Origin: Phycisphaerales bacterium
GTDB taxonomy: Bacteria; Planctomycetota; Phycisphaerae; Phycisphaerales; UBA1924
Length of the DNA: 64,000 bases
Assembly: GCA_044221545.1 (NCBI GenBank)
Contig: JBGAOZ010000019.1
Location: 20,833-84,832 of the forward strand
Reading direction: 5' to 3'
This document shows, piece after piece, positions 46,523-61,836 of the stretch. A model generated the notes under the pieces. It had not been told where the DNA came from. It saw nothing but the letters and a program-made list of their open reading frames with translations, and did no database searches. Every line of letters starts with the position of its first letter. Position 1 is the first letter of the stretch. A program made the translations under genes and the position numbers.

Positions 46523-47722
46523 CTACTCGTCGTCGTCCTCGAAGGCCACGTCCCCGGCCGCCGTCGGGATCTCCGCCAGCGTCCCCGGGACCATCGTCGG
46601 CATCCACAGGTCCGCCTCGTCCTGCCCGTCGTTGTGCCGCCGCAGCAGCAGGTAGATCAGCGTCGACGACACGAAGTACGCGCTGACCGCAAACCCGCCC
46701 ACCAGCAGCGCCGGCACATCCTCCCACAGCCCCATGATCGCCTCGGTGGCGCGCCGGCTCCACCCCGGATCGTCCGTTCCCGGCGCGGGCGCTGTCACCC
46801 AGACCATGGACGCCCGCGAGCACAGTCCCAAGGCCCATGACGCGATCAACCACAGGATCCCCGCGGCGATCCCCGTCTGAACCAGCGCCGTGAGCAGGTA
46901 CGCGATCAGCCGCACCGGGCTGGCGACCACGTACGCGAACGCACGCTGCACCGCGTCCAGCGCATCGGTCCCCTCGCACGAGACGGCCGGAATCAAGAGG
47001 TGCTTGCCCAGCGCCGTCCCCAGCACCATCAGCACCGCGATCAGCCCCGCCAGCATGAACAGCGGGTACGCCAGCGCCCCCAGCACCTGAACGTACGCCA
47101 GGTTCAGCAGCACCCACCCGCCGATCGCCAAGCCCAGCAGGATCATCCCCGCACTGATCGGCGCCAGCAGCATCGCCGCCGCCGAGCTCTTCCACTTCGA
47201 GATCGCAAACCCCACCGCCCCCGGCCAGGCCATCCGCACGCCCTGTCCGAACTCCAGCGCCGACATCCGGCAGATCGCCGCGCCGCCCAGCGTCCACACC
47301 GCGATCGTGGGAATCGCCAGCGCCAGCGTCACCCACGGGGAACTCAGCGGCAGGTCAACCACCAGCGCCCACGTCGCCCGCCCGATCCCCCGCGCCACGC
47401 CCGAGAGGTCCCCGCGCCCCGCCCCGAGCGCCAGCTGCTCCCGGGCCCGTTCGAGCGTCCGGCCCGCGAACGCAAACCACAGCCGCCCCGCCTCGGTCCC
47501 CTGCAACGCCCGCACCACCAGCAGGATCACCGTCAGCACCACCGTCCCCAGCACCCACCGCTCCGGGCGCATCGCCAGCCCGGTCGCACGGCGCAGCTTC
47601 GGCCACAGCAATTCCTCCGTGAGGTCCGAGAGAAGCACCGGCCGGATGGGCTGGCCCCGCCGGGTCCGACCGACCGCCGCAGGGATGTTCGCGGTTTGTG
47701 CCGCAGGGCGAGCGCTCTCCAT
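46523..47722 (-). CDS. Multi-pass membrane protein, unknown function
   Basis: 399-aa ATG ORF with about 8 hydrophobic helices and an acidic tail (VAFEDDDE). Host-like codon bias. No motif recognised. Confidence 0.65.
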   Translation of the reverse strand: MESARPAAQTANIPAAVGRTRRGQPIRPVLLSDLTEELLWPKLRRATGLAMRPERWVLGTVVLTVILLVVRALQGTEAGRLWFAFAGRTLERAREQLALGAGRGDLSGVARGIGRATWALVVDLPLSSPWVTLALAIPTIAVWTLGGAAICRMSALEFGQGVRMAWPGAVGFAISKWKSSAAAMLLAPISAGMILLGLAIGGWVLLNLAYVQVLGALAYPLFMLAGLIAVLMVLGTALGKHLLIPAVSCEGTDALDAVQRAFAYVVASPVRLIAYLLTALVQTGIAAGILWLIASWALGLCSRASMVWVTAPAPGTDDPGWSRRATEAIMGLWEDVPALLVGGFAVSAYFVSSTLIYLLLRRHNDGQDEADLWMPTMVPGTLAEIPTAAGDVAFEDDDE

Positions 47723-47845
47723 GCCGCGATGCTAAAGCCTCCGGCGTGCCTCTGCCACCCTGGGGCCTTCCCGGGGCGTGTATTTCTTCCCCCCGCACCT
47801 CCCGCCGCTTGCTCTGGCCTCTCGGAGGGCCGATGATCCTCCCCG

Positions 47846-48901
47846 ATGAGCCGAGAGTTCTTCCGCAACGTCGCCCTCTTCGTCGAACTGCTGGCGATCG
47901 GCCCGCTGGTCAGCATGCTGGTGACCTTCCTGCACGGCGCTGACGGCGGGCCGGTGATCTCGCCCCTGGTCAACGCTTCTCCGCTGCTCGGCGCCGGGAT
48001 CATGTGCCTCATCCTGCTCGCCGCCCTGCTCGTCGGCATCGCCGACGCCCGCTTCTTCGGCCCCAGGTCCGGGCTCGCCGCCGCGGGCTTCATCCTCGGC
48101 TGGTCCGGCTGGCGCACCGGCGAGATCGGCTCGCTCCTGCGCACGGGCGGACACCCCGAAGTCCCCCTGGCGATCGAAGGCCTGGTCATCGGCGCCGCGG
48201 CCCTCTACATCGTTCGAGAGATCGCCCTCGTGGGCAGCATCTTCATGCCCAGCCCCGCGCACCATTCCCAGGGCTCGGCCAACGCGTCCCAGGTCGACCA
48301 CCGAATCAAGTACTTCGCCGTCGGCGGTATCTGGGGTTCCCTGGTCGTCGGCAGCATGGTCCGCCCGGCGCTGGCCCATCGCCCCGGGTCCGCCGGAGAT
48401 CTCGGCCTCCGCGAATCGCTCGCCAACATCTCCCCGGCCCTCCATTTCCGCACGTTCCTTCGCCCCACATCCATGCTGGCGATCGGCGCGGCCACGATTG
48501 CCGCCGGACTTGTCGCCTGGCTCATGGCTTTCCATGGCGCCAAGGGGCAGACCCTCTTTGCCGCCTTCCTCGGTGGGATCGCCGCCGGCGCTGCCGCCGC
48601 GATCGTCTCCGCCGGCTCATCCGATTCACAGGACGATGTGCCCGCCGATCCCGTCCTCTCGGCGTCCCTTGGGATGGTCCTTCTGGCTGTTATCGCCCCC
48701 CTCGCGGCCGTGATCATCCACGGCGTTCCGGGATCCAAAGCTCTGGATTCGGCGATCATGACCGGCAACCTCTTCCACCTCAGCCATATCGGGGCCCTGG
48801 ATTGGGCCTTCGGGGCCCTCATGGGGGTCCCTGTGGGGCTCGGATGGGCCGGCGCCCACGCCCAGATCACCACAGAAGATTCCTCCCCGGCCGCCGCCTG
48901 A
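47846..48901 (+). CDS. Multi-pass membrane protein, unknown function
   Basis: 351-aa ATG ORF with about 9 hydrophobic helices rich in G/A/L. Confidence 0.65.
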   Translation: MSREFFRNVALFVELLAIGPLVSMLVTFLHGADGGPVISPLVNASPLLGAGIMCLILLAALLVGIADARFFGPRSGLAAAGFILGWSGWRTGEIGSLLRTGGHPEVPLAIEGLVIGAAALYIVREIALVGSIFMPSPAHHSQGSANASQVDHRIKYFAVGGIWGSLVVGSMVRPALAHRPGSAGDLGLRESLANISPALHFRTFLRPTSMLAIGAATIAAGLVAWLMAFHGAKGQTLFAAFLGGIAAGAAAAIVSAGSSDSQDDVPADPVLSASLGMVLLAVIAPLAAVIIHGVPGSKALDSAIMTGNLFHLSHIGALDWAFGALMGVPVGLGWAGAHAQITTEDSSPAAA

Positions 48902-49104
48902 GGCCTTCCTGACCCCTCGCGGACCCAAAAACAGCCCACGGCGGCCCGGTCAGGAGCCGATCAACAGTTCCAGAGGGAACCGCTGGAAACCCCGAGCGTC
49001 CAACCCGGTACGATTGGTGTACCAACCCGCCGGACGGCCCTCCAAGGCCGACCCCGGCAGCCCCAGCCTGCGGAACCGCTCCGCGGCGTCCAGAGGAGCC
49101 CGCC

Positions 49105-50073
49105 ATGACGACTCGCCGCCGGTTTGCCGTTGCAGGTCTGTTGGTCGCATCCGGGCTCGCCGCTCCGGTCCTCGCGCAGCAGTCGCCCGCCGTGCAGGTC
49201 CCCACCCAGCAGACCACCCGCGTGCAGACGAGTGTCTCGGCCCCCGCGGGCACGGAGACCATCGTGATGTCCTCGCGGCCCGAGCGCGACACGCTCGCCA
49301 AGTTCGCCCGGCCCCTGACCGTCGAGTTCAAGGAGTCACGCCTCGAGGATGTCATCAAGTTTATGACCGAGGTGACCGGCGCCGACCTCGAGCCCATGTG
49401 GCAGGACGACCGCAACTCCACCGGCCTCAACAAGGACATGCTGATCACGCTCAACGCCAAGGGCACCAACGCCCTCAAGGTGCTCGAGAAGATCCTCCAG
49501 AAGGCCAGCGAGAAGGGCGACCTGCTCGAGAACACATGGCAGATGTCCGACACCGGCGCGATGCAGATCGGCCCCAAGGAACGCCTCAACGCCTTCAAGC
49601 GCCTCGAGATCTACGACATCAACGACCTGCTCGTCGAACTCCCGCGCTACGACCAGGCCCCCGAGTTCGATCTCCAGTCCGTCCTCCAGAGCTCAGGCCA
49701 GGGCGGCGGCGGCAGCAGCCAGAGCCCCTTCCGCGATACCCAGAGCGGACGCAATCAGAACCCCGGCCTCTCCCGCGAGGACAAGGGCAAGAACGTCATC
49801 GACATCATCACCGGCCTGATCGAGACCGAGCAGTGGTCCGACAACGGCGGCACCGGCGGCACCATCCGCTACTACCAGGGCACCCTCATGGTCAACGCCC
49901 CCGACTACATGCACCGGCAGATCAACGGCTACGACTACTGGCCCGCCGGCTCCCAGTCCGCCACCGTCGTCAACGGTCGCCGATGGGTCTCGCTCAACCT
50001 CGACACCGCCGTCTCCACCCTCGACGGGCTCGCCAACCAGCCCGTGACCGCGGTCGTCCCCGGCGGTCGCTGA
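49105..50073 (+). CDS. Secreted protein of unknown function with twin-arginine-like signal peptide
   Basis: GAGGAG RBS. MTTRRRFAVAGLLVASGLAAPVLAQ fits T-R-R-x-F plus an h-region plus A-x-A. Globular body with a G/S/Q-rich linker. Confidence 0.7.
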   Translation: MTTRRRFAVAGLLVASGLAAPVLAQQSPAVQVPTQQTTRVQTSVSAPAGTETIVMSSRPERDTLAKFARPLTVEFKESRLEDVIKFMTEVTGADLEPMWQDDRNSTGLNKDMLITLNAKGTNALKVLEKILQKASEKGDLLENTWQMSDTGAMQIGPKERLNAFKRLEIYDINDLLVELPRYDQAPEFDLQSVLQSSGQGGGGSSQSPFRDTQSGRNQNPGLSREDKGKNVIDIITGLIETEQWSDNGGTGGTIRYYQGTLMVNAPDYMHRQINGYDYWPAGSQSATVVNGRRWVSLNLDTAVSTLDGLANQPVTAVVPGGR

Positions 50074-50138
50074 GCCCACGCCACGCTCGGCGGGCCCCTC
50101 CACCTCGATCCGCCCCCCTGCTCGCGAACACCGCGCGA

Positions 50139-51191
50139 TCATTCTTCCTCCGCTTCCTCATCCCCCTCGTCCGCTTCGCTCACCGGCGCGGGGAATCCGA
50201 TCCCCATCAATTGCTCCATCTGCCCCGCGATCCGGCGTGATCGCCAGACCCCCAGCGGCCCGCCCGGCAGCGAGAGCAGCTTCAGCGTGACCGGCCGCGC
50301 TGCGCCCGCCCCGCCGCGCTCCAGCTCGACCATCACCGAAGTAACCTCCCCGGCAACCTCCGCGTGGAACCGCGCGATGTCCCGGGCCTCCAGGTCGACC
50401 ACGCGCCGGATCACGATCCAGCGCACGATCTCGATGCTCAGCCGCGGACCCCGCCCCGTCTGCTCGACCATCCACTGCACCACCTGCGGGCCGACCAGCT
50501 TCGACAGCCCCCCCGCGATCGCGCCGATGTGCAGGAAGAACTGCCAGCCGTGCACCGATCCCCCACGGCCCCGCGAGCCCAGGATCGCCGCGCCCAGGCC
50601 CAGCGTCACGCCCGCCACGATCAGGATCGCGTAGCACAGCCGGCGGAAGATCCACAGCCGCGTCGGCGTGCCCAGCGCCAGGTGAAGACCGTGCTCCGAG
50701 CTTTCCACCACACGGAACGGTTTGAACCACTCCCCCAGCACCGGCGGCACATCCACCGCAAGCCGCTCGGCCGGCGCCCCCTTCACCGCCCGGCTCGCCC
50801 GCTTGCGCAGCGAATCCCTCACGCAGATGAACACCACCGCGGAGATCACGCTCACCACGCTCAGGCCCAGCCCGACCGCCATCTCGATCATGTGCACCGG
50901 GGCGGCGCGCGCACCCGACGACCACGTCAGCGCGATCGCGCCCATCGCCACCGCAAACCACGCCCCCGACATCCACCAGCTCAGCCTCGCGCGGCCGGCC
51001 ATCCGCTCGGCGCGATCCTCCAGCCCCATCACCCGCTCCAGCAGGTCGATCGGGTCGGGCGGCGGGACCGGTGGCGGGTCCGTCGGCCAGGCCGGTCCCG
51101 CGGCCGCGCCGGATGATGAAAGGGGCTCGGGCACTCCCAAAGATACCCCACGGACGCCCGAACGGTCTCGCCGCCCGCCACGCAGGTGCAT
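50139..51191 (-). CDS. Membrane protein (2 TM + 2 TM + PH-like segment), unknown function
   Basis: 350-aa ORF. Two TM hairpins are followed by LSIEIVRWIVIRRVVDLEARDIARFHAEV...VTLKLLS. Acidic tail EADEGDEEAEEE. Start uncertain. Confidence 0.55.
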   Translation of the reverse strand: MHLRGGRRDRSGVRGVSLGVPEPLSSSGAAAGPAWPTDPPPVPPPDPIDLLERVMGLEDRAERMAGRARLSWWMSGAWFAVAMGAIALTWSSGARAAPVHMIEMAVGLGLSVVSVISAVVFICVRDSLRKRASRAVKGAPAERLAVDVPPVLGEWFKPFRVVESSEHGLHLALGTPTRLWIFRRLCYAILIVAGVTLGLGAAILGSRGRGGSVHGWQFFLHIGAIAGGLSKLVGPQVVQWMVEQTGRGPRLSIEIVRWIVIRRVVDLEARDIARFHAEVAGEVTSVMVELERGGAGAARPVTLKLLSLPGGPLGVWRSRRIAGQMEQLMGIGFPAPVSEADEGDEEAEEE

Positions 51192-51222
51192 CCTCGGCCC
51201 CGGTTTGCGGTAGAGTCTGCAT

Positions 51223-52707
51223 ATGTCCGAACCAGCAAGAACCCGCTCGTTCTTCCGACGCTACCCCGGGCTGACCATCTCCTCGGCGATCTTCCTCGCA
51301 CTGGTCGGCTACTTCCTCTACGAACTCACCCGGGCGATCACCGCCAAGCCCGGCGCCGCGGGCCTGTACGCCAAGGACATCGAAGCCGCCGTCCGCACCA
51401 GCCAGAAGAACCTCCCCGGCCAGGATGCCTGGGGGCAGTTCCTGCTCGCGATGAACGCCCTGGACGCCGGCCAACGCTCCTACGCGAGCAGGATCGGCAG
51501 GCCCTCCACCGGCGGTGCGTACCCCGACCCCCCCGTCGACTGGCCCGATGGCGTCGACTGGCCCGTCGACCCCTCGGCCGTCGGAACCGAGAAGTCCTCC
51601 CCGCGCACCGAGGCCTACGTCCGCGACCTGCTCACCCAGCTCCGCGCCGATGGCTCGCTCGCCGAGCTCGCCAAGCTCGTTCCGCCGGCCCCCGCCGTCC
51701 GGCCTATCCCGCCCACCAAGATGCTCGAGCTGCTCTTGCCCGAGCTGGGCAAGTCACGCCAGGTCGCCCGCCTCAACCGCGCCCGCATGGTGCTCGCCCT
51801 CGACGCCGGCGACACCGCCGAGTTCCTCGCCGCCTTCGAGCAGTCCCTGGCCCTGGCTCGTGTCGTCGGAAACCAGGGCACGCTCATCGACCACCTCGTC
51901 GGCCTGGCGATCACCGCCATGACGCTGGACCACCTCCGCTACCAGATCGCCGACAACCGCCTCGACGCCCCGACCCTGCGCAGCGCCCTCGCGGCGATCG
52001 ATCGCCAGCTCCCCTTCACCGGCATGTCGGTCGCCCTCGACACCGAACGCTACATGGCCCTCGACACGATCGAGTGGACCCACTCGACCGAGGGCCGCGC
52101 CATGGTCGGCAGCTCCATGTCGATCGCCAACGGCTCCGGGGACGCCAGGCCCGTCTCGCTCGGCGGCGTTGAGAACATCGTCTCGATCGTTCTCCCCTCC
52201 AAGAAGCAGTCGCAGGACGCCGTCGAGCAGTTCCACACGCTCGTCCGCAAGCAGGCCGAACTCCCCTTCTACGCCCGCGCCCGCCCCTCGCCCGCCGAGA
52301 CCTTCGCCGAAGGTCTCTCACGCCGCTACGTCGTCGTCAAGCTCCTCATCCCCGCCGTCGACAGGGCCCTCACCACCGAGTCCGCCGTCCATGATGCGAT
52401 CGCCGGCACACGCATCATGATCGCCCTTCAGCTCCACCGCCTGGACAAGGGCGCCTACCCCGCCGCCCTCCAGGACCTCGTCCCCGCGTACCTTCCCGCG
52501 CTCCCCCCCGACGAGTTCAACGCCGCCGGCATCACGTACAAGCTCCGCGACGCCGCCAGCGCCGACCCGGTCGCCGCCTACGTGCTCTACTCCTTCGGCG
52601 CGGACCTGGCCGACAACGGCGGCGCGGTCCCCCCCGACGGCATCCTCAACGCCAACACCTCGGGAAGCGATCTGCTCTACAACACGCACCGCCCGCGCGC
52701 CAAGTAG
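51223..52707 (+). CDS. N-terminally anchored protein of unknown function
   Basis: 494-aa ATG ORF. One TM helix (LTISSAIFLALVGYFLY), then an all-helical body. Confidence 0.65.
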   Translation: MSEPARTRSFFRRYPGLTISSAIFLALVGYFLYELTRAITAKPGAAGLYAKDIEAAVRTSQKNLPGQDAWGQFLLAMNALDAGQRSYASRIGRPSTGGAYPDPPVDWPDGVDWPVDPSAVGTEKSSPRTEAYVRDLLTQLRADGSLAELAKLVPPAPAVRPIPPTKMLELLLPELGKSRQVARLNRARMVLALDAGDTAEFLAAFEQSLALARVVGNQGTLIDHLVGLAITAMTLDHLRYQIADNRLDAPTLRSALAAIDRQLPFTGMSVALDTERYMALDTIEWTHSTEGRAMVGSSMSIANGSGDARPVSLGGVENIVSIVLPSKKQSQDAVEQFHTLVRKQAELPFYARARPSPAETFAEGLSRRYVVVKLLIPAVDRALTTESAVHDAIAGTRIMIALQLHRLDKGAYPAALQDLVPAYLPALPPDEFNAAGITYKLRDAASADPVAAYVLYSFGADLADNGGAVPPDGILNANTSGSDLLYNTHRPRAK

Positions 52708-52713
52708 CCCGGC

Positions 52714-55700
52714 TCACCGACCCGGCGCATCCTTGGCGTCCGTGCTCGACGGTGGAGGCGGCGGTGGGGCGGGTGCCGGCGCAGCGCCCGACGCATCCCT
52801 GGCGCCCGCCGGCGCGTTGGCCTTGTCCACTATCCGGTTGAACACCCTCCGGATCAGGTCCGAGTATCGCGGCGGAATGCTCTGCTGCTCCAGCGCACGC
52901 TCCACTCCCTTGGCCGCCTCGCGCGCCGACTCGCGCGATACTCCCACGGGCGCCCGGGTCGCCGGCGCATCCCCGAGGATCTTCGGTACATCCGCGATCG
53001 GCCGCTCTCCGGTCGCGTCCGATGCGCTGCGGCGAGCATCCAGGCCCTCCCGACGCGTCGGGTCGCCCTCGAACGGCCGCGCCGGCTCCCGGCGCTTGTT
53101 CCCGTTCCTCCCATCCCCGCGAGGATTCCCCGGCCCATCCCGCCCGCGCGCCCCGGGATCCTCGTCCGCGCCCGTCCCCTCCTGGCCCGGCGGACGTTCT
53201 CCGCTGCCCTTGGGCTGCGTGCTCTTTGGATCCTGCTCACCCGGCCGCGGCTCCTGGCCCGCGCGATCCTTGGCCATCTGCTGCGCGAGCTTCTCGAGCT
53301 CCCGGCGCTGCTCGGGCGTGGCGCGGCGGAGCAGCTCCTCGGCCTTCTTTCGCAGCTCCTGGCTGTACTGCTGGTTGCGCTGGGCGTCGCGCCCCTGGTC
53401 GGCGAGCTTCTGCATCTCCTTGGCGATCTTCTCCAGCCCGCTCATGTCCGACGGCAGCTTGTCGGGCAGCCCGGGATCACCGGGTGATTCGCCCGGCTTG
53501 GCGCCCCGCGGCGACGGCTCCGCATCCTTCCCCTCGGCGCTCGAATCCGGCTTGCGATCCGGTTCCCGCTCCGCGCCGGTCGGGTCCTTCTCACCCGGCC
53601 GAGGCTCCTGCCCTTGGCGCTCATGATCGTCCGCGCCCGGCGCCTCCTTCGGCTGCTCCCCGGGCTTCTGGCCCTGCGATCGGTCACCCCGCTCGCCCGC
53701 CTGTTTGCCGGGCTGCGGTTCAGGCTTCTGATCTGCCTTCTGATCCGGCTTCCGATCCGCCCCTTGATCCTGTGTCTCGCGCGGTTTGGATCCGCTCTCC
53801 GGTTCGCGCTGCGGATCTCCCGGTCGATCCGACCGACCGGGCCGTTGGTCCCCAGGCTTGGGCGTTTCGCCGGGCCGCTCCCCGGGTTTCTTCTGATCCG
53901 GCTGCGACGACCGCGTGTCCTGACCCTCGCGCTGCTCGCCGGGCTCGGCACGCGGCCGGTCTTCCTTCTTGGGCGACCCCTCGCGCAGCTCGCGGGCCGC
54001 CTGCTTCATCGCATCCCGCACTCCCTGCGTCGGGCTCTCCCGCGGCTTCTCGTCCCCGGGCTTCTGTTCGGCGCTGTTCTTTTCACCGGACTGCTTCTGA
54101 TCCGCCGCGCCCGCCGGCTGGGATTTCTGATCCCCGCCCTGCTGCGCGCCATCGCGTTGCTCGCCCGGCGCTGATGAGTCCTTCTTCTCCCCGGCCTGCC
54201 CGCTCGCCTGCTCCTCGGAAGACTTCCGGCCTTCATCCTTGTCCGCATCGCTCTTCTTGTCCTGCGCTTTGGAATCCTCGCCGCTCGCGGGTCGATCCTT
54301 CGCGGGACCTTGGTCCTTGTGCTCGGCCTGCTCATTCCCCGACGGCTCGGAGGGCGAACGCTCCTTCGTTCCCGTGCCGTCCTTGCGATCCCCGTCGCGC
54401 TTGGCCGCATCATCCTTGCGATCCGGTGCCCGGTCCTTCGGCGCGGATGGATCCGCGGAGTTGTCTGTCTGCTTCTGGTCCTTGTCGCTCTCGCCGCGAT
54501 CCGGCGATGATGTTCCAGACTTGGGAACCGGCCGTCCGGGCTCCTTGTCGCCCGCGGGCTCCGCCTGGCGTGCCTTCTCGCCGGCCTTGTCTTTGGTCTT
54601 CTCTTCGGCCTTCTCCCGCGGAGACTCTGCCCCTGGCTCTGCTTCCGTCTCCTTCGGCCCCTGAGCCTTCTGCTCGGTCGGCGGTGGGATCCGAGGCTTC
54701 TGGGAGACCGGCCGTTCCGTTGTCCCGAGCGGCTCGCCCTTCTCCGCCGGCGATCCGTCGCGCATTCTCGTCGATTCCGCTTGCCCGGCCCCGGAGTCGG
54801 CGGGCGATGTGCTCGCGTTCCCGTTCTCCTCGGGCTTCTGCTTCTCGAGTTCATCCGCGAGCCGCTGGAGTTCATCCGCCAGCGCTTCCCGCTGCGCCGG
54901 CTCGAGACCCTCGGCGGCCTTGGCGATCCTCTGGGCCGCCGAGTGCGCGGCGTCGAGGTCCCCCTCGCGCACGGCCCTGGAGAACTCCTCGGCCGCCGCG
55001 CTGCGCTGGGCCTGGCTCGTCCCGCGCCGCGCGGCCTGCGCCAGCTGCCGCCGCGCTTCGCTCACGCGAGCGTCCTCTTCCTTCGATCGCGAGGCCAGCG
55101 AGTCGGCGATCTCATCCACCTTCCGCGCCGACTCGGCCAGCGATTCGCTCGCCGGCTTGCCCTTGCCCGGCTGCGCGAGTTCCTTGGTGATCTCATCCAA
55201 CTGCGCGAGCCGCCGCTGCGCTTCGGCCGCCCGCGGGCCATCCAGCGCCGATTCCCTCACCACTTCCTTCACCGACTGCGCCACCGAATCGACCGTCTGG
55301 GCTGCCGCCGTGCGTGCAACCTCCTGCTCGTGCGCTGCGATCGCCCGAGGATCGACCCGCTGCGGCAGGTACCACGCGCCGATGCCCAGAACGGCGGCGA
55401 ACCCCGCCGCGATCCACGTCCGACCCAGCCGGATCGGCACCGCCGGCCCGATCCGGATTCGCTCGGCAAGCCGCTCGGCATCCCCGATCGCCAGCGGCGC
55501 AAACACACCGCCAGAAGCACCCGCGGCGCCGCCCGCCAGCGCCAGCGCCGACGACAGCCGGTCTTTGAGCCCCAGCCGCTCATCGAGCGTCGCGGCGGCC
55601 TTGAGTTCTCCCCACCGCCGCCACCACGCGACTCCCGCGGCGACCGCGATCGCAGCGCACGGCGATGCGCCCAGCAGCATCATCCACGTCTGGCCCGCCA

Positions 55701-55899
55701 GGTGCACGATCCCCACGCGCGCGGCCGCGATGAGCAGGGCATCGGCGACCCCCGCGCACGCCAGCGCAGTTCCGGCCAGGCGCACGAAGTCGGCAACGAT
55801 CCCCCGCCGCCCCGCGGCCCGGGCGATCCGCCGTGTTTTCAGGGGGGTGGCGGGCATGGGGAATGGTATTCGCGATGCACGATCCGCACGCTGGAGCAT
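52714..55899 (-). CDS. Large membrane-anchored protein with coiled-coil segments and a disordered central region of about 500 aa
   Basis: 1061-aa ORF (alternative ATG at 55857). N-terminal TM pair, Ala/Glu/Arg helices, then a long P/E/K/D/G/Q-rich tract. Structured C-terminus ...ALEQQSIPPRYSDLIRRVFNRI. The + strand ORF 53022..55190 is P/R/A shadow. Confidence 0.7.
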   Translation of the reverse strand: MLQRADRASRIPFPMPATPLKTRRIARAAGRRGIVADFVRLAGTALACAGVADALLIAAARVGIVHLAGQTWMMLLGASPCAAIAVAAGVAWWRRWGELKAAATLDERLGLKDRLSSALALAGGAAGASGGVFAPLAIGDAERLAERIRIGPAVPIRLGRTWIAAGFAAVLGIGAWYLPQRVDPRAIAAHEQEVARTAAAQTVDSVAQSVKEVVRESALDGPRAAEAQRRLAQLDEITKELAQPGKGKPASESLAESARKVDEIADSLASRSKEEDARVSEARRQLAQAARRGTSQAQRSAAAEEFSRAVREGDLDAAHSAAQRIAKAAEGLEPAQREALADELQRLADELEKQKPEENGNASTSPADSGAGQAESTRMRDGSPAEKGEPLGTTERPVSQKPRIPPPTEQKAQGPKETEAEPGAESPREKAEEKTKDKAGEKARQAEPAGDKEPGRPVPKSGTSSPDRGESDKDQKQTDNSADPSAPKDRAPDRKDDAAKRDGDRKDGTGTKERSPSEPSGNEQAEHKDQGPAKDRPASGEDSKAQDKKSDADKDEGRKSSEEQASGQAGEKKDSSAPGEQRDGAQQGGDQKSQPAGAADQKQSGEKNSAEQKPGDEKPRESPTQGVRDAMKQAARELREGSPKKEDRPRAEPGEQREGQDTRSSQPDQKKPGERPGETPKPGDQRPGRSDRPGDPQREPESGSKPRETQDQGADRKPDQKADQKPEPQPGKQAGERGDRSQGQKPGEQPKEAPGADDHERQGQEPRPGEKDPTGAEREPDRKPDSSAEGKDAEPSPRGAKPGESPGDPGLPDKLPSDMSGLEKIAKEMQKLADQGRDAQRNQQYSQELRKKAEELLRRATPEQRRELEKLAQQMAKDRAGQEPRPGEQDPKSTQPKGSGERPPGQEGTGADEDPGARGRDGPGNPRGDGRNGNKRREPARPFEGDPTRREGLDARRSASDATGERPIADVPKILGDAPATRAPVGVSRESAREAAKGVERALEQQSIPPRYSDLIRRVFNRIVDKANAPAGARDASGAAPAPAPPPPPPSSTDAKDAPGR

Positions 55900-55906
55900 C
55901 GATTCG

Positions 55907-55979
55907 GTCTACCCGTCTCGTGGCACAGTCCGTCCCGGCTGTGCCTGCCCCATCTACCACACCGAACCGGCGTCGAGCC
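55907..55979 (+). repeat. Conserved intergenic element, copy A (upstream of trpD)
   Basis: The 37-nt core GTCTACCCGTCTCGTGGCACAGTCCGTCCCGGCTGTG is identical to the reverse complement of 61693-61729. The next 36 nt are about 70% identical to rc 61657-61692. Confidence 0.7.
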
Positions 55980-56089: not shown

Positions 56090-57190
56090 ATGCACCCCCG
56101 CCACCCCTTCGATCGCCTCCTCCCCGGCCATTCCCTCACCTCCGACGAGGCCGAGGCCGTCTTCTCCGACCTGCTCGCCGGCGCCTACGACGACGCCCAG
56201 ATCGCCTCCATCCTCTCGCTCATCCAGGCCCGCGGCCCCACCGTCGATGAACTCATCGGCGGTGCCCGCGCCATGCGCCGCTGCGTCCGCGCTGTCCCCG
56301 CATCCACCTCCGGCGGGCCCATCATCGACACCTGCGGCACCGGCGGCGCGCCCAAGACCTTCAACATCTCCACCGCCGCCGCGATCGTCGCCGCCGCCGC
56401 CGCCGGCCCCGCGCGCATCCGGGTCGCCAAGCACGGCAACCGTTCGCGCTCCGGACGCGGCTCGGCCGAGGTGCTCGCCGCTCTGGGCATCAACATCGAT
56501 GCGCCCCCAGAGGTCCAGGCCCGCTGCCTTGATGAGATCGGGGTCTGCTTCTGCTTCGCGATCCACTCGCACCCGGCGATGAAGCACGCCGCCCACGTGC
56601 GCAGGTCCCTGGCCTTCCCGACCATCTTCAACCTGCTCGGCCCCCTCACCAACCCCGCGCACGCCGGCCGTCAGCTCATCGGCGTCTACGGCCGCGAGGA
56701 AGCGCAGAAAGTCGCCCACGCGCTCGCGGGCCTGGGCGCGGAGCGGGCCTGCGTCGTCCACGGCTTCGATGGCATGGATGAGATCACCACCCGCGACAGG
56801 ACGCACCTGTTCCAGGTCTACGGCGCGGGCGTCCATTCCACGACCGGCTGGGCGGCCCGGGCCGGCGCAGCGCCGACGATCGCGTACGGCGACCCGGTGA
56901 TTCCCGAGACGTTTGACGCCCAGGACCTGGGCATCCCTCGCGCCCCGGCGGGCACGCTCGAAGCCCGAGACCTCGCGCACGGGGTCGAGATCGTCCGAGC
57001 CGTCCTCGCGCCCGGCCCACCGGTTGAATTCTCCCACGCCCGGAACATTGTCACCCTCAACGCCGCCGCCGCCCTCGTGATCGCCGGCGCTGCCGACTCA
57101 CTCCCCACCGCACTGCTCGCCGCGAACCTCGCCATCGACTCGGGCGCGGCCCGATCCACGCTCGCCGCACTCGCCCAACTCAGCGCCTGA
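56090..57190 (+). CDS. trpD: Anthranilate phosphoribosyltransferase
   Basis: ATG 56090 gives MHPRHPFDRLL. Motifs: DTCGTGGAPKTFNISTAAA, KHGNRS, NLLGPLTNP. The listed ORF begins at TTG 56051. Confidence 0.9.
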   Translation: MHPRHPFDRLLPGHSLTSDEAEAVFSDLLAGAYDDAQIASILSLIQARGPTVDELIGGARAMRRCVRAVPASTSGGPIIDTCGTGGAPKTFNISTAAAIVAAAAAGPARIRVAKHGNRSRSGRGSAEVLAALGINIDAPPEVQARCLDEIGVCFCFAIHSHPAMKHAAHVRRSLAFPTIFNLLGPLTNPAHAGRQLIGVYGREEAQKVAHALAGLGAERACVVHGFDGMDEITTRDRTHLFQVYGAGVHSTTGWAARAGAAPTIAYGDPVIPETFDAQDLGIPRAPAGTLEARDLAHGVEIVRAVLAPGPPVEFSHARNIVTLNAAAALVIAGAADSLPTALLAANLAIDSGAARSTLAALAQLSA

Positions 57191-57494
57191 ACAAACGAGC
57201 CCTCAGCGCAAGCTCAGGGTGCCTCTGCCTGCGCCACGACACCTCGGTGTGGCACGTGGAACATGTGCATGCGTGTGCGCACAGAATGTGACATGCCCGG
57301 AAATCCCCTATTACGCCCGTCTGCGGGGCGGCAACGCGGGAGGCCCCGCGGGCCCAACCGTGCCGCCCGAACCGTTCCTGGGGCGTCGTCGTGCAGATCG
57401 CTTGTTGTGCGCCAATCTGCTCAAAAACGCTCGAAATGCAGCGATTGGCGGTGGCCCGGCGCTTGACCCACACCGGCCCGGAGCGGGGAGCTCA

Positions 57495-57935
57495 CTACTT
57501 GCTCAGCAGCCGCAGCACCCCCGGCCCGCGCTCGTACCGGGGCACGCCCGCATCGGCCGCGAGCGACCAGAGCTCCATGCCGCCGGCGATCGACATCGCG
57601 TTGGGGTGGCCCAGGGCCCGCAGCGCCAGCGCGGCCTTGAGTGATCGCACGCCGTGGTGGCACATGATCGCCAGCTCCTGCCCGGGCGCTGCTTCGATCT
57701 CGTCGTGGCGTTTCTCGATCTCATCGAGCGGGATGTGCACAGCGCCCTCCAGGTGCACCAGGTCCCACTCGGGCTTGGTGCGCACATCCACCATGACCAT
57801 CCGGCCCGGCTGCTCGAAGATCGTCCTGGCATCGCGGGGGGTGATCTCCAGCGCGGGCTTGAAGGGGTAGCCGGCGGGAAGTCCGCGAGCATCGAGGCCC
57901 GGTGAGGATGGCGGGTTGCCTGCGGGGTTGCTCAT
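57495..57935 (-). CDS. Rhodanese-like sulfurtransferase domain protein
   Basis: VDVRTKPEWDLVHLEGAVHIPL, plus the active-site loop CHHGVRS. Confidence 0.8.
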   Translation of the reverse strand: MSNPAGNPPSSPGLDARGLPAGYPFKPALEITPRDARTIFEQPGRMVMVDVRTKPEWDLVHLEGAVHIPLDEIEKRHDEIEAAPGQELAIMCHHGVRSLKAALALRALGHPNAMSIAGGMELWSLAADAGVPRYERGPGVLRLLSK

Positions 57936-57995
57936 CGCGGGTACTCCTGGCGGCGGGCGGCGTGGGTAGGCGTGTGCGGTCGGACCGGGCCGGAA

Positions 57996-58679
57996 CTACT
58001 TTGATCCGGGCGCTGCGGAATTGGTTTGGGGACCGGTCCCGGGCTGGGATTGGGCGGGCAGGCCCGGCCCGGCTTCGTGCGAAGCGCTCGCCGGCTCCTG
58101 GCCGGCGGGCCAGCGGTCGTAGCTCCACGAGGGGCTCCAGTAGGTGCGGGACTGGGGCTCGAGCAGGAGCCTGAAGGGAACGGCGATCGCCTCGCCGGTC
58201 ATGACCAGGGGCATGTCGATGCTCTCGACGAGCTGGGCGTCGGTGAAGCCGCCATCAAGTTCCAGAGCGGTGAGGGCGGTGGGGAACTGGCCGCGCTGTC
58301 GGGCGGTGGCGTGCTTGAGCTGGAGTGTGTCGAAGTAGGTGGGCCGGTGGCCGGTGCCATCAACGGGCACGAGGAAGGGGGTGGTTTCCCAGTTGGCGCG
58401 GTCGATGGCGAGCAGGGAGCGTTTTCCCTCGGGGAAGGCGGGCACTGGGCTGGGGAGTTCTTCTGCGCCGCTGGAGCCATCCTGCGGCCCCTGGAGCGCG
58501 CCGGGGCGATCGGGGGTGAGGGCTTCGAGCTCGACCTCGTGGCCGATGGTGAGCCGTTCGTTGTCCGAGACGCAGCCGGTCGGGCCGGCGAGCCCCAGCA
58601 GGCAGGCCGCGCCCGCGAGCGCTGCGATCGGCAGCGCCCGCTGGGGTGAGGAGGGCATCGGGTTGCGGGGAAGGACCAT
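57996..58679 (-). CDS. Lipoprotein of unknown function
   Basis: MVLPRNPMPSSPQRALPIAALAGAACLLGLAGPTGC (lipobox). 227 aa. Confidence 0.6.
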   Translation of the reverse strand: MVLPRNPMPSSPQRALPIAALAGAACLLGLAGPTGCVSDNERLTIGHEVELEALTPDRPGALQGPQDGSSGAEELPSPVPAFPEGKRSLLAIDRANWETTPFLVPVDGTGHRPTYFDTLQLKHATARQRGQFPTALTALELDGGFTDAQLVESIDMPLVMTGEAIAVPFRLLLEPQSRTYWSPSWSYDRWPAGQEPASASHEAGPGLPAQSQPGTGPQTNSAAPGSK

Positions 58680-59250
58680 GCCGCAACGGTATCAGATCCA
58701 CAGCGCCGGATCGAGTGCGGGCCGGGCGAGCCAACCGCGCCATCGCGCGGCGGGCGGCTTGTACAATGGAAGCATCGAGAGCACCGGGGGCTGCCTCAAA
58801 GCCAGGGCCGCCCACATCGCCGCGTGCTCGGGGAGTCCTCATGCGGGAGACCGAATCCCGGGAGGGGGCGCGTGCTGGTCCAGCGACGACATCGAGGCCG
58901 CGCGGCTGGCTTCTCGTGGGGCCGCCAATGCCTTCAACCGGCCCTGGGGTGTTCAAGGACCCACACCCGACCAGCGGTGGGATGCCCGCCCGCCGATCTC
59001 CCGCGAGCGACGGACTCTGTTCGTGCAGAGCGTCGATCGCTTCCGCGCCGCGATCGCGGCCTCCTGGCTGGAGCGTCAGAACTCACTCAACACCGGGGCG
59101 ATGCACGCCCCGGACCAGATCCCGGCGGGCCCGCGGTCGAGCGTCGACCGCGCCGCCATCCGCTCGGCTCTCGTCGAGCTGGGCGAACTCACCGTCAGGA
59201 GACCCGCCAATACGTCCACCCATTCTCCTCCGAAAACGCGCAGAAATTAG
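58678..59250 (+). pseudogene. Orphan gene stub (host-like GC); only the last ~125 codons look protein-like
   Basis: Frame 1 is open from 58339. From about 58870 it reads ...DDIEAARLASRGAANAFNRPWGVQGPTPDQRWDARPPISRERRTLFVQSVDRFRAAIAASWLERQNS...ELGELTVRRP, with G/C third positions. The N-terminal half is low-complexity and overlaps the divergent lipoprotein start. Confidence 0.3.
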
Positions 59251-59271
59251 CCGAGCAGCACAGGCGCATGG

Positions 59272-59766
59272 GTGGATGGTGACTGGAGTGGGGATTTGGC
59301 TGTAGGCGGTAGCATGGGTGGCAGCGGAGGTGTTGGTGCCGGTGGCGAGCTTGTGGGAGGACAAGGTGGATATGCTTGGGGTGAAGAAATCACGGGAAAT
59401 AGGAAGGGACGCGATGTGCGGTTCATCTACTTCGGAGGTAATCTATTGATCGGCACTGGAGGCCTTGCGTATGATACCGTGGATTCCAAATGGCTTTATT
59501 ACTTTGGAGTCGGTGGGAAGGTTACGGCGCTCGGAGCAGGGGTGCATGGCGAGGCTGTTGTTTATGGAAAGCTTGAAGACTTGATAGAACTTATTGCGTA
59601 TTTTAATTCGGGCTCGACCCCTCCACCACCACCAACACCGCCCTCATCATATCATCCGACAATCAACCCAGGTGTCTTCAATATTATCCAGGGCTTGTGG
59701 TCTCGGTGGACTGGGAATCCACATTGTTATTATTATTCTGCAGACTCCAATAGTTGCATGATATGA
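59272..59766 (+). CDS. Low-GC islet ORF1: glycine-rich/glycine-zipper protein with poly-Pro linker and Cys/Tyr-rich tail
   Basis: GTG 59272 (ATG 59314). Sequence features: GGSMGGSGGVGAGGELVGGQGG, FGGNLLIGTGGLAY, FGVGGKVTALGAGVHGEAVV, PPPPPTPP, NPHCYYYSADSNSC. A/T-ending codons contrast with the host genes. Confidence 0.55.
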   Translation: MDGDWSGDLAVGGSMGGSGGVGAGGELVGGQGGYAWGEEITGNRKGRDVRFIYFGGNLLIGTGGLAYDTVDSKWLYYFGVGGKVTALGAGVHGEAVVYGKLEDLIELIAYFNSGSTPPPPPTPPSSYHPTINPGVFNIIQGLWSRWTGNPHCYYYSADSNSCMI

Positions 59767-60284
59767 TAGACAAAGACCATAATCCAAAACTTTGCCGCGT
59801 TGTATCCGTCGGCACCTGCATCATCGGACTTTGGCTTATCTTAGAAGTCCTTGGGCAAATTGGTTCGCATTATTACTATAAACATTCAATCGGCTCGGTT
59901 GTCAACTGTACCGCATCTCCAGGCGGCATGCATGCATCCGACAAAGTGTTCATATCCGTCAAGTATAGGTACGTGGTCGATGGACAAGCTTTCTTCGGAG
60001 ACGGCTATTCGCATGTTTCTGGGTCACGATTCGCATGCGATAGGTTCGAAATGCCGAAATATGCTGGAATTTATGCGATAAACTCTCCGGTCGATGTGTA
60101 CTACTGCCCGCTCATCCATTCCATTGCGGTATTGAATACTGATGTTACAAATGCAGATTATGTGCAATTCGCGGGTGGAGCGTTTATTATATTTGCTGGA
60201 GTGTTTGTTTGGCTTTTCTATGGACGCCACCAGCGAACAATGATCGTGAAGGGCGACCACCAACCCAGTTTACGCACCATGTAG
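59763..60284 (+). CDS. Low-GC islet ORF2: DUF3592-like protein with N- and C-terminal TM helices
   Basis: ATG 59763 overlaps the ORF1 stop as ATGA (the listed ORF starts at TTG 59754). First TM helix VVSVGTCIIGLWLILEVLG. The core ISVKYRYVVDGQAFFG...SPVDVYYCPLIHSIAVL follows. Second TM helix FAGGAFIIFAGVFVWLFY. Confidence 0.6.
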   Translation: MIDKDHNPKLCRVVSVGTCIIGLWLILEVLGQIGSHYYYKHSIGSVVNCTASPGGMHASDKVFISVKYRYVVDGQAFFGDGYSHVSGSRFACDRFEMPKYAGIYAINSPVDVYYCPLIHSIAVLNTDVTNADYVQFAGGAFIIFAGVFVWLFYGRHQRTMIVKGDHQPSLRTM

Positions 60285-60452
60285 CCTCCAAGCCTGTCAA
60301 TTATTGGATCGCACCGCTTCAACTCGATCGAGAGGTAGCGCCTCTGCAGTACGCTCAAATTTGGATCCTATCCGTGCTGAGCTAACGTCTTGGAGGTTCT
60401 GCTCCGTCCCCCATGCGCGTTGGGCGCTCAACAATGGGGGCGGGAGGCTCTC

Positions 60453-60694
60453 ATGGCGGCGAAGAACGGCGTGAACGGCACGGGTGAGATCGTCGGCGAG
60501 GAGATCCAGCGGTGGACCAGCGGTCGCAAGGCCGCCGTGGTCCTGGACGTCATCAAGGGCAGGGCCACACCGGCGGACCTGGCGCGGCAGCATGATCTCA
60601 CCGTCGGCGAGATCGAGGGGTGGGTCGAGAAGTTCCTCGAGGGCGGGCGGGAGGGCCTCCGCGCCGTGCCGCGTGACCTGGAGGCCCGCTTCGA
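60453..60694 (+). pseudogene. Truncated HTH transposase gene (IS3 OrfA / DUF1153-like)
   Basis: GGGAGG RBS and ATG 60453. MAAKNG...IQRWTSGRKAAVVLDVIKGRATPADLARQHDLTVGEIEGWVEKFLEGGREGL. The ORF then runs into repeat sequence at 60695. Confidence 0.55.
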
Positions 60695-60832
60695 CGGCAG
60701 GTGGCACCGGGGTCCGCGATCAAACGAAGGGCCTCCAAACCGTGCCACCGGGGTCGGCTCTGCGACCCCGGTGTCTTGGTTCTCTCTCGATCCCCATCAC
60801 ATGAACCCCTTCCAGTTCACCCACGATTGAGG
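60695..60832 (+). repeat. 138-bp REP-like repeat unit, copy 1
   Basis: About 90% identical by eye to 61009-61148. Contains the 11-bp hairpin CACCGGGGTCG-GCTCTG-CGACCCCGGTG (60746-60773) and an extra CACCGGGGTC at 60705. Confidence 0.8.
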
Positions 60833-61008
60833 CCTTCCCGGCGGCGGATCGCACTCGATTTCCCCCTCGCGCAGGCCCATCCACCACCGCACACTCGACC
60901 AGCGCCACTCCTCGGGTGCGAGCACCAGCCCGCGCTCGACCGGGTTGCGGTGGATGTACCGGACCTCGCGGCAGAATTCGTTCTCATCTCGCACGTTGCG
61001 GTCGAACC
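60833..61008 (-). pseudogene. Remnant of a REP-associated tyrosine transposase (RAYT, IS200-like), C-terminal part only
   Basis: The minus-strand ORF 60797..61021 reads ...NEFCREVRYIHRNPVERGLVLAPEEWRWSSVRWW..., matching the YIH-x-NPV-x-x-GLV...W-x-WSS block of RAYTs. No catalytic N-terminal half is present. Confidence 0.6.
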
Positions 61009-61148
61009 CGGCAGGTGGCACCGGGGTCCGTGATCAAAACCATGGGCCTCCGCGCCGTGCCACCGGGGTCGGCTTTGCGACCCCGGTGTCTTGGTTCTCT
61101 CTCGATTCCCATCACATGAACCCCTTCCAGTTCACCCACGACTGGGCC
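61009..61148 (+). repeat. 138-bp REP-like repeat unit, copy 2
   Basis: Direct repeat of 60695-60832. The hairpin lies at 61061-61088, with loop GCTTTG. Confidence 0.8.
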
Positions 61149-61308
61149 GGGTGCCCGGGAAAACGCTGTGACGGGGGTGGCATACTCAACCTGCTCTGAG
61201 GTTGAGCACGTGAATTCGAAGCACATGCCCAAGCTCAGAGCAGCTTGAGCATTCCACCGGGGCAGCTCGTTTCCCCTCCGTGTTCCCCGTGGCCCCCGTG
61301 TTGATCCC

Positions 61309-61617
61309 TCAATTCAGCTCGAGCAAAAACGCCTGAAGCTCCGAGACCGCATGGCCATCGCCGGCCTTGCGGGCGCGGGCGATCCCATCCTGGAGCGTCT
61401 GCTTGGTCTCGGCCATCCGTTCGATCGCCTGCTGGCTGCGGGCTTTGTGGTAATACGCGTAGCAGTAGTCCGGATCGCTCACCAGGCAGCGGTCGTAGTA
61501 GGTGATGGCGGTCTCGTGCTGGCCGAGTTTGGCGTATTCGTGGGCGAGCCCGTAGAGGATGAAGGCATCGCCGGGGTCGGCCTTGAGCAGTTTTTCCAGG
61601 GCCTCGATCGACGGCAT
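61309..61617 (-). CDS. Small TPR-repeat protein
   Basis: ATG at complement of 61615-61617 gives MPSIEALEKLLKADPGDAFILYGLAHEYAKLGQHETAITYYDRCLVSDPDYCYAYYHKA, two to three TPR motifs. The listed ORF extends to 61788. Confidence 0.75.
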   Translation of the reverse strand: MPSIEALEKLLKADPGDAFILYGLAHEYAKLGQHETAITYYDRCLVSDPDYCYAYYHKARSQQAIERMAETKQTLQDGIARARKAGDGHAVSELQAFLLELN

Positions 61618-61656
61618 CGGTGACGGTAGACGGGGCCGGGGGTGCGGTCGACTGCT

Positions 61657-61729
61657 GGCCCGGCACTGGTTCAGTGGGGTAGGTGGAGTGGACACAGCCG
61701 GGACGGACTGTGCCACGAGACGGGTAGAC
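61657..61729 (-). repeat. Conserved intergenic element, copy B (upstream of the TPR gene)
   Basis: Reverse complement of the copy A core at 61693-61729 (37/37 identical), with the extension at 61657-61692. Confidence 0.7.
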
Positions 61730-61836
61730 TGAGCCAGGGCCCTCCTCTCCCTTCCCTCCCGCCCGCGCGGTATCCTTCGGTCTCTCAACCCACCCTTCCC
61801 ACCAGAATCTCCCGTGGCGGTTCAGGAGCCCTCGCG

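Follow-up and report, generated by a model that had tools for sequence, protein, structure and literature searches.

A low-GC islet in a Phycisphaerales genome

This study concerns a short segment of deviant base composition, hereafter the islet, found in a 64-kb stretch of DNA from an uncultured Phycisphaerales bacterium (contig JBGAOZ010000019.1; the entire stretch is referred to as the window). The islet carries two small open reading frames (ORFs) on the same strand, ORF1 and ORF2, and lies between the remnant of an insertion sequence (IS) on its left and a truncated helix-turn-helix (HTH) gene on its right (Table 1). The G+C content (GC) of positions 59251-60390 is 0.494, against 0.681 for the whole window, a deviation of about 5.9 standard deviations below the mean of 1140-nt windows (standard deviation 0.032, whole 64 kb). 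The lowest 1140-nt window of the 64 kb (GC 0.492) starts at 59241, and nowhere outside the overlap with the islet does such a window fall below 0.60. Third codon positions behave likewise: their GC (GC3) is 0.44 in ORF1 and 0.49 in ORF2, compared to 0.79 in the adjoining IS, 0.84 in the HTH gene and 0.80-0.98 in host genes. Thus, computation bears out both the sharp compositional break and the flip of third codon positions to A/T that had been reported in a preliminary description of this DNA. The islet represents 1.13 kb of residual low-GC DNA that was acquired by horizontal transfer.

Table 1. Features at and around the islet (positions within the window).
Feature	Position	Strand	Remarks
Lineage-specific insertion zone	58680..61308		between lipoprotein gene (57996-58679, -) and TPR gene (61309-61788, -)
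5′-truncated rve-type (IS3/IS481-like) IS	58762..59262	+	last ~163 transposase residues; stop TAG 59248-59250
Low-GC islet proper, foreign DNA	59263..60394		GC 0.49 vs 0.68
ORF1, 164 aa, ORFan	59272..59766	+	GTG start; alternative ATG 59314
ORF2, 173 aa, DUF3592 family	59763..60284	+	PF12158
HTH gene fragment, high GC, similar to IS orfA	60453..60698	+	DUF1153/HTH_28
RAYT/REP debris	60695..61144	-	two 135-nt repeats around RAYT C-terminal fragment

The left edge of the islet (59262/59263) is exact because it coincides with the terminus of the IS. The right edge is approximate, being set solely by the climb in GC between 60380 and 60410. A 20-nt inverted repeat (59253-59272 / 60410-60429) was considered as marking the two ends of the islet and discarded: its left arm is nothing but the IS tip, and a match this good is expected by chance. 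Among the 87 other loci compared, the only DNA match to the islet is an identical one, in a contig (L001) from the Logan assembly of public run SRR28480385. This contig is 100% identical to window positions 59233-60642; therefore, the islet and its right junction are not peculiar to the window's own assembly, although that run may not be independent of the source of the window.

The insertion sequence at the left border

The preliminary description had placed an "orphan gene stub" and mobile-element debris beside the islet. The debris is indeed there, but the stub proves to be the 3′ end of an rve transposase gene, and the IS terminus that follows it forms the left border of the islet. The stub protein is 73% identical to an rve-domain protein (P0002; PF00665) over 99% of the query (E 1e-65), and the alignment reaches the C-terminus of the homologues and the native stop of the family. 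The transposase is of the InsO type; NCBIfam matches to IS481 and IS3 are weak and below cut-offs. At the DNA level, the stub is 81-83% identical to two other copies of the element (in L082 and L083), the similarity beginning at 58762.

Six independent copies of the IS were compared (window 58762-59262; L082:4298-4799; L083:4147-4652; and those in L086, L087 and L088). All have the segment TAG-C(C/T)GAGCAGCACA in common and diverge immediately past it, which places the right terminus of the element (...GAGCAGCACA) at 59262. Two Logan contigs also meet at this point: L084 spans 56322-59262 and L001 spans 59233-60642, sharing 30 nt, a pattern characteristic of repeat edges in de Bruijn graphs. 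This IS family is specific to metagenome-assembled genomes (MAGs) of Phycisphaerales. Five of the copies have downstream sequence, and in each of them the terminus gives way to unrelated DNA of lower GC (0.43-0.61 over the first 200 nt, compared to 0.68-0.73 within the IS). In the window's own copy, GC is 0.65 in the first 100 nt past the terminus and 0.50 thereafter. This pattern suggests that the IS family either prefers AT-rich targets or carries variable cargo. The former is the simplest reading and, in a genome of 70% GC, would amount to targeting foreign islands. A preference for AT-rich targets would concentrate rve-type elements in the foreign islands of high-GC genomes.

The GTG codon of ORF1 lies 9 nt past the IS tip, and its frame is open back across the junction to the transposase stop. 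With a shared frame and a single TAG in between, we considered whether ORF1 was the C-terminal continuation of the upstream gene. This was rejected: the upstream gene encodes a transposase, which in every homologue terminates at its native stop, and the shared frame is therefore coincidental.

Two features of the related copies deserve mention. In L082, an ORF of 165 aa (4834-5331) comes first after the terminus; it has two hydrophobic stretches and no match in Pfam, and beyond it lie sequences of REP-associated tyrosine transposase (RAYT)/repetitive extragenic palindrome (REP) type. In L083, a degenerate second IS tip (TAGCCGAGCAAAACAG, 4870-4885) is found about 230 nt past the true terminus, perhaps as a solo end that remained from a previous insertion.

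ORF1 and ORF2 are overlapping genes

One strand of the islet contains two stop-free runs, of 176 and 166 codons. The length of the second run was reached in only 3 of 5000 shuffles of the islet sequence, and the other five frames hold 3 to 9 stops each. Since runs of this length rarely arise in shuffled DNA, neither ORF is due to chance: ORF1 and ORF2 are two real, overlapping genes. The stop of ORF1 (TGA, 59764-59766) and the start of ORF2 (ATG, 59763-59765) overlap as ATGA, just as had been described. The arrangement had also been taken as typical of toxin-antitoxin or immunity bicistrons. This does not hold, as ATGA is the commonest overlap between co-directional bacterial genes and is not diagnostic of toxin-antitoxin pairs. 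Being common among operon genes generally, it lends little weight to a toxin-immunity reading. Neither protein was present in an exact-sequence cluster look-up; for ORF1, this is probably because the GTG start was translated as V.

ORF2 is a divergent DUF3592 protein

ORF2 matches the DUF3592 profile (PF12158) with 30.8 bits (E 4.9e-7; cut-off 25.3), residues 54-127 aligning with positions 15-82 of the 84 in the profile; the core alone scores 32.7 bits. The family assignment of the preliminary description is thus upheld, and so is the topology it proposed, with transmembrane (TM) helices on either side of a beta-rich core. Hydropathy places the two helices at residues ~9-34 and ~131-155 (Kyte-Doolittle averages over 19 residues reach 1.6 or more at windows 9-16 and 131-136). 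A low-confidence AlphaFold2 (AF2) model comprises helix 8-40, a hairpin at 62-85 (strands 62-72 and 75-85) and helix 129-162. The core (54-127) is beta-rich, and the protein has cysteines at positions 49, 92 and 115. We conclude that ORF2 is a true DUF3592 protein, with two TM helices around a small beta-rich domain. Its C-terminal tail is basic (3 K/R vs 1 D/E) so that, by the positive-inside rule, the cysteine-bearing beta domain probably faces the periplasm.

DUF3592 was the sole match of ORF2 in Pfam, NCBIfam, PADLOC, PHROGs and the PDB. No close relative was found in a word-indexed search of 5.8 billion clusters or in scans of metagenome and viral contigs.

DUF3592 is a widespread family of membrane proteins without an established function. 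The mycobacterial member ML2271 is described as having two TM helices joined by a small beta-barrel and has been proposed as a cofactor of the mannosyltransferase MptB, on the basis of genetic correlations and AlphaFold3 modelling presented in a preprint (10.64898/2026.07.15.738315). Elsewhere, LXG-3 toxin loci of S. suis encode a DUF3592 TM protein of "unclear function" (PMC12482557), and a DUF3592 gene has been found together with VapBC in a class 1 integron region (PMC13148013). ORF2 shares the layout of ML2271/Rv0556 and scores above the curated cut-off of the family. It differs from these proteins in being very divergent, foreign, IS-associated and coupled to an ORFan, and in lying outside a cell-wall biosynthesis context.

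ORF1 is a soluble, Gly-rich orphan protein

ORF1 consists of a Gly-rich segment (residues 1-46), a beta-rich region (38-100), a short helix, a STPPPPPTPPSS linker and a 40-residue Trp/Tyr tail that includes two cysteines (Cys152 and Cys162). Glycine makes up 20.7% of its residues. The preliminary description had noted the absence of a signal peptide and a PPPPPTPP linker. Both observations stand: the N-terminus is not hydrophobic and the linker is present. Other statements made there are not supported. ORF1 had been credited with glycine-zipper hydrophobic stretches; its best 19-residue Kyte-Doolittle window reaches only 0.98, against a TM threshold of ~1.6 and values of 2.15 and 2.06 for the ORF2 helices, and by hydropathy it has neither a TM segment nor a signal peptide. 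All nine of its GxxxG motifs fall within residues 3-46, none in the two cited stretches, FGGNLLIGTGGLAY and FGVGGKVTALGAGVHGEAVV (residues 52-66 or 78-97). The glycine-zipper or membrane-type label fails. The only likeness between ORF1 and glycine-zipper membrane toxins such as TelE and Tse4, which have a (G/A/S)xxxGxxxG pattern in a hydrophobic helix, is a high glycine content. Unlike these toxins, ORF1 has no hydrophobic helix and no GxxxG beyond its N-terminal low-complexity region, and it shows no sequence similarity to any glycine-zipper toxin. It is best described as a soluble protein, rich in Gly and in beta structure, with a proline linker and a tail bearing two cysteines. An apparent internal duplication (IYFGG... 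vs YYFGVGG...) was not significant (P = 0.32).

An exhaustive HMMER scan of 1.84 billion representative proteins returned no credible homologue of ORF1, be it as a separate protein or as a C-terminal domain of a larger one, the latter being a possibility raised by the preliminary description. The sole match, a 1118-aa TPR/CHAT protein (P0001; E 1.1e-4), was rejected as a homologue: identity to a single TPR repeat amounts to 35% over 40 residues, and the score is summed over many TPR copies. A word-indexed search of 5.8 billion clusters gave no match; nor did Pfam, NCBIfam, PADLOC and PHROGs, or segments of the protein compared with Pfam at E up to 10. Scans of metagenome and viral contigs were likewise negative. 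Neither ORF1 nor ORF2 gave a tblastn match in plasmids and phages, and neither had a homologue in 1.26 Mb of collected loci. In a sequence search of the PDB, the best E-values (1.3 for ORF1 and 0.17 for ORF2) were judged due to chance.

Possible origin and role of the pair

How might the two genes have come to lie at an IS end? The explanation that we prefer begins with an rve-type IS landing inside a larger low-GC foreign island, an event made plausible because copies of this IS abut unrelated, lower-GC DNA in all five cases where downstream sequence is available. A later deletion would have removed the 5′ half of the IS together with all the DNA to its left, leaving the 1.13-kb remnant. Since ORF1 starts 9 nt past the IS tip, it may be the 3′ remnant of a gene cut by the IS. 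The gene would probably have encoded a longer secreted protein, given the start at the junction, the reading frame that is open across it, the lack of an export signal and the combination of a cysteine pair with a proline linker, as is usual in extracytoplasmic proteins. ORF2, anchored in the membrane, would bind the ORF1-type domain on the periplasmic side, the two forming a partner pair at the cell envelope. Taken whole, this sequence of events seems to us evenly poised between being right and being wrong.

One version of the envelope pair is an orphaned effector tail with its immunity protein, the IS cut having removed the delivery part. ORF1 would then probably be inert at present, while ORF2 could still protect. 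Such a pair is the likeliest single function that can be proposed, although it is itself less likely than not. Its hints are circumstantial: the foreign origin, the tight coupling, the presence of DUF3592 in LXG loci and the extreme divergence of both proteins, a lack of close relatives being expected for fast-evolving pairs. On these grounds, a toxin/immunity role is possible. The more specific proposal, that ORF1 is the toxic C-terminal domain of an effector family not previously seen and ORF2 its cognate immunity protein, appears improbable.

Orphan cdiA-CT/cdiI, rhs-CT/rhsI (CT, C-terminal toxin tail) and LXG modules, as generally described, are among the closest parallels. The islet resembles them as a small low-GC pair with transposase remnants alongside, in which ORF1 is without an export or trafficking part of its own and ORF2 is small and tightly coupled. 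It departs from polymorphic toxin modules in that the window contains no parent toxin gene and no delivery system, and neither protein shows trafficking or pre-toxin homology or a toxin/immunity domain. Should ORF1 turn out to be toxic and ORF2 protective, the occurrence of DUF3592 in LXG loci and integron regions would become interpretable, and the first demonstrated role of DUF3592 would be that of a membrane-anchored immunity protein with a periplasmic domain.

Several results weigh against the envelope-pair explanation and its effector/immunity version. No Rhs, CdiA, LXG, type VI secretion system or other delivery gene lies within ~13 kb of the islet, whose neighbours are housekeeping genes or conserved unknowns. 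Neither protein could be assigned to a toxin, immunity or defence family in Pfam, NCBIfam, PADLOC, PHROGs or the PDB, in agreement with the preliminary description, which had been unable to place either of them in a characterised family of this kind. In the literature searched, the sole role proposed for DUF3592 on functional grounds is that of a mannosyltransferase cofactor, not immunity. A scan of the islet for promoters and terminators yielded no signal exceeding chance. The structural basis is weak as well: the AF2 models, both built without alignments, have predicted local distance difference test (pLDDT) scores of 51 for ORF2 and 36 for ORF1, the latter model being usable for secondary structure only, so that they give little support to topology or fold. 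In addition, ORF1 could be full-length, as the 17 codons between the IS tip and the alternative ATG would, by our estimate, be open by chance in ~44% of cases. Finally, the left junction crosses a repeated IS end, so a short-read assembly could have misjoined there.

Alternative readings

Four other readings of the islet were weighed. They are not mutually exclusive with each other or with the explanation above, so that the degrees of confidence attached to them do not sum to one; the first, in particular, overlaps the others.

The islet could be dead DNA in the course of decay, with ORF1, and perhaps ORF2 as well, no longer expressed or selected. The missing relatives of ORF1 would then mark it as a relic, truncated or drifted in frame, and not as a new protein. 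The surroundings fit this idea, made up as they are of truncated elements (the 5′-cut IS, the cut HTH gene and the RAYT fragments), and so do the promoter and terminator scan, the want of an ORF1 homologue among 1.84 billion representatives and the pLDDT of 36 of its model. On the other hand, neither frame is interrupted along its 164 or 173 codons in DNA of 49% GC, a length seldom matched in the shuffles (3/5000), at a place where the other five frames carry 3-9 stops each. Moreover, ORF2 still scores above its Pfam cut-off, and an identical sequence exists in the Logan assembly of SRR28480385, though that run may not be independent of the source of the window. We regard decay as a possible, if doubtful, account of the locus.

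The pair could also be a non-toxic accessory module of the envelope, with ORF2 acting as a DUF3592 adaptor that aids a membrane enzyme or complex and ORF1 as an unrelated or structural partner. This would agree with the one functionally backed proposal for the family, in which the protein lies beside the active site of a GT-C mannosyltransferase and serves as its cofactor (10.64898/2026.07.15.738315), and with the matching layout of ORF2, two TM helices and a small beta domain. Profile searches found a toxin signature nowhere. However, no glycosyltransferase or other membrane enzyme is present in or beside the islet, and a foreign, isolated pair embedded in IS debris would be unusual for a housekeeping cofactor, making this role rather unlikely.

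In the preliminary description, the islet was viewed as a candidate toxin/immunity or bacteriocin-like module. If it were a working, self-contained cassette, ORF1 would be a full-length, membrane-active glycine-zipper toxin and ORF2 its membrane immunity protein. A small foreign ATGA bicistron beside mobile elements, with a small membrane protein encoded downstream, is in line with such a cassette, as is the presence of DUF3592 in LXG toxin loci; the Gly-rich N-terminus and the two-cysteine tail of ORF1 recall the composition of some bacteriocins. Against this, ORF1 is devoid of a hydrophobic helix (maximum 0.98 in the 19-residue window) and of GxxxG in the stretches cited, and neither a leader peptide nor an export gene nor a toxin domain accompanies it. 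No homologue exists in the databases scanned, even as the C-terminal domain of a larger protein; the start codon lies 9 nt from the IS tip, and the promoter signal is not above chance. A working cassette is accordingly judged unlikely.

Lastly, an assembly chimera, in which a low-GC piece from another organism or site was joined via the repeated IS end, is very improbable. In its favour, the left junction falls exactly at a branch of the de Bruijn graph, where L084 and L001 share 30 nt at the IS tip, and the host is known solely from metagenome-type data. Against it, contig L001 continues without interruption from the IS tip across the islet to a point 250 nt inside the high-GC HTH gene, and the IS family is specific to Phycisphaerales MAGs. 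The islet is therefore physically linked on either side to DNA of Phycisphaerales type, and would be so even with the exact IS copy mis-assigned.

As it stands, the locus illustrates the routine survival of a scrap of foreign DNA between IS remnants in a high-GC planctomycete. It is an unremarkable leftover of horizontal transfer amid IS debris, carrying a very divergent member of DUF3592.

The right flank of the islet

The HTH gene matches DUF1153 (33.4 bits; cut-off 23.5) and HTH_28 (31.4 bits; cut-off 25) in Pfam and shows weak matches to SciP and IS66-TnpA. It is cut at ~60695 by the first of the two 135-nt repeats (60695-60829 and 61009-61144), which are 93% identical. The fragment that they surround (60797-61021, minus strand) corresponds to the C-terminus of a RAYT, matching the last 37 positions of profile NF047646 (E 1.7e-8). 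The 135-nt element includes the 3′ end of the RAYT gene and a GC-rich hairpin (GTGCCACCGGGGTCG...CGACCCCGGTG). Sequences related to this element adjoin the same IS family in L082 (5285-5833 and 6734-6814).

With an exact IS terminus on the left and an orfA-like HTH gene in the same orientation on the right, the locus resembles IS-bounded islets and composite transposons. It differs from a composite transposon in that the comparisons made did not assign the flanking fragments to one IS. A transposon of this type, with the same IS on either side, was in fact considered and set aside. No counterpart of the HTH gene adjoins the rve genes in L082 or L083, and no second copy of the IS tip was found in the window, the best match resembling the left inverted repeat (60395, 9/14) being at chance level (P about 0.4-0.45). 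Truncation of both flanking elements precludes the reading of a target-site duplication. Inspection of 60285-60420 by eye for the attC site of an integron gene cassette (no attC model was run) disclosed no clear RYYYAAC...GTTRRRY pair. The predicted RNA fold of 60270-60460 has a z-score of -2.4.

Contig L001 terminates at 60642, inside the HTH gene and ~50 nt ahead of the 135-nt repeat. No 30-nt repeat in the window accounts for a break near 60612-60642, which may reflect strain variation or a drop in coverage in that sample.

Insertion zone and neighbouring genes

The IS stub, the islet, the truncated HTH gene and the RAYT/REP debris together occupy a zone inserted into an otherwise conserved gene order (TrpD - rhodanese - lipoprotein - TPR - Hbd) that is found in three relatives, L002, L003 and L004. 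The interval between the lipoprotein and TPR genes measures 2629 nt in the window, compared to 107, 57 and 52 nt, respectively, in these relatives, where no match to the stub, ORF1, ORF2, the HTH gene or the RAYT fragment was found. The TrpD protein of the host is at most 65% identical to those of MAG genomes. Genes identified across 46.5-64 kb encode TrpD, rhodanese, lipoprotein, TPR, 3HCDH and RNHCP proteins, as well as conserved proteins without Pfam matches.

Some additional features were noted in this part of the window. Five large ORFs in succession at 46523-52707 (354-497 aa) show a strong coding signal, with GC3 of 0.86-0.93, and went unmatched in Pfam at E 1e-3; at least one of them (51214-52707) is conserved in related Phycisphaerales MAGs. 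The adjacent gene (52714-55908, minus strand) encodes a 1064-aa protein with hydrophobic N-terminal segments and no Pfam match, 37-46% identical to proteins in related MAGs. The strongly negative AT skew (-0.5 to -0.7) over 53.0-54.9 kb corresponds to the middle of this protein, a stretch of ~600 residues rich in Lys, Glu, Asp, Pro and Gln that is probably disordered. Finally, a long inverted repeat (61176-61258; 37-nt arms, 84% complementary, 9-nt loop) lies ~50 nt past the 3′ end of the TPR gene and could be a terminator or another REP-type hairpin.

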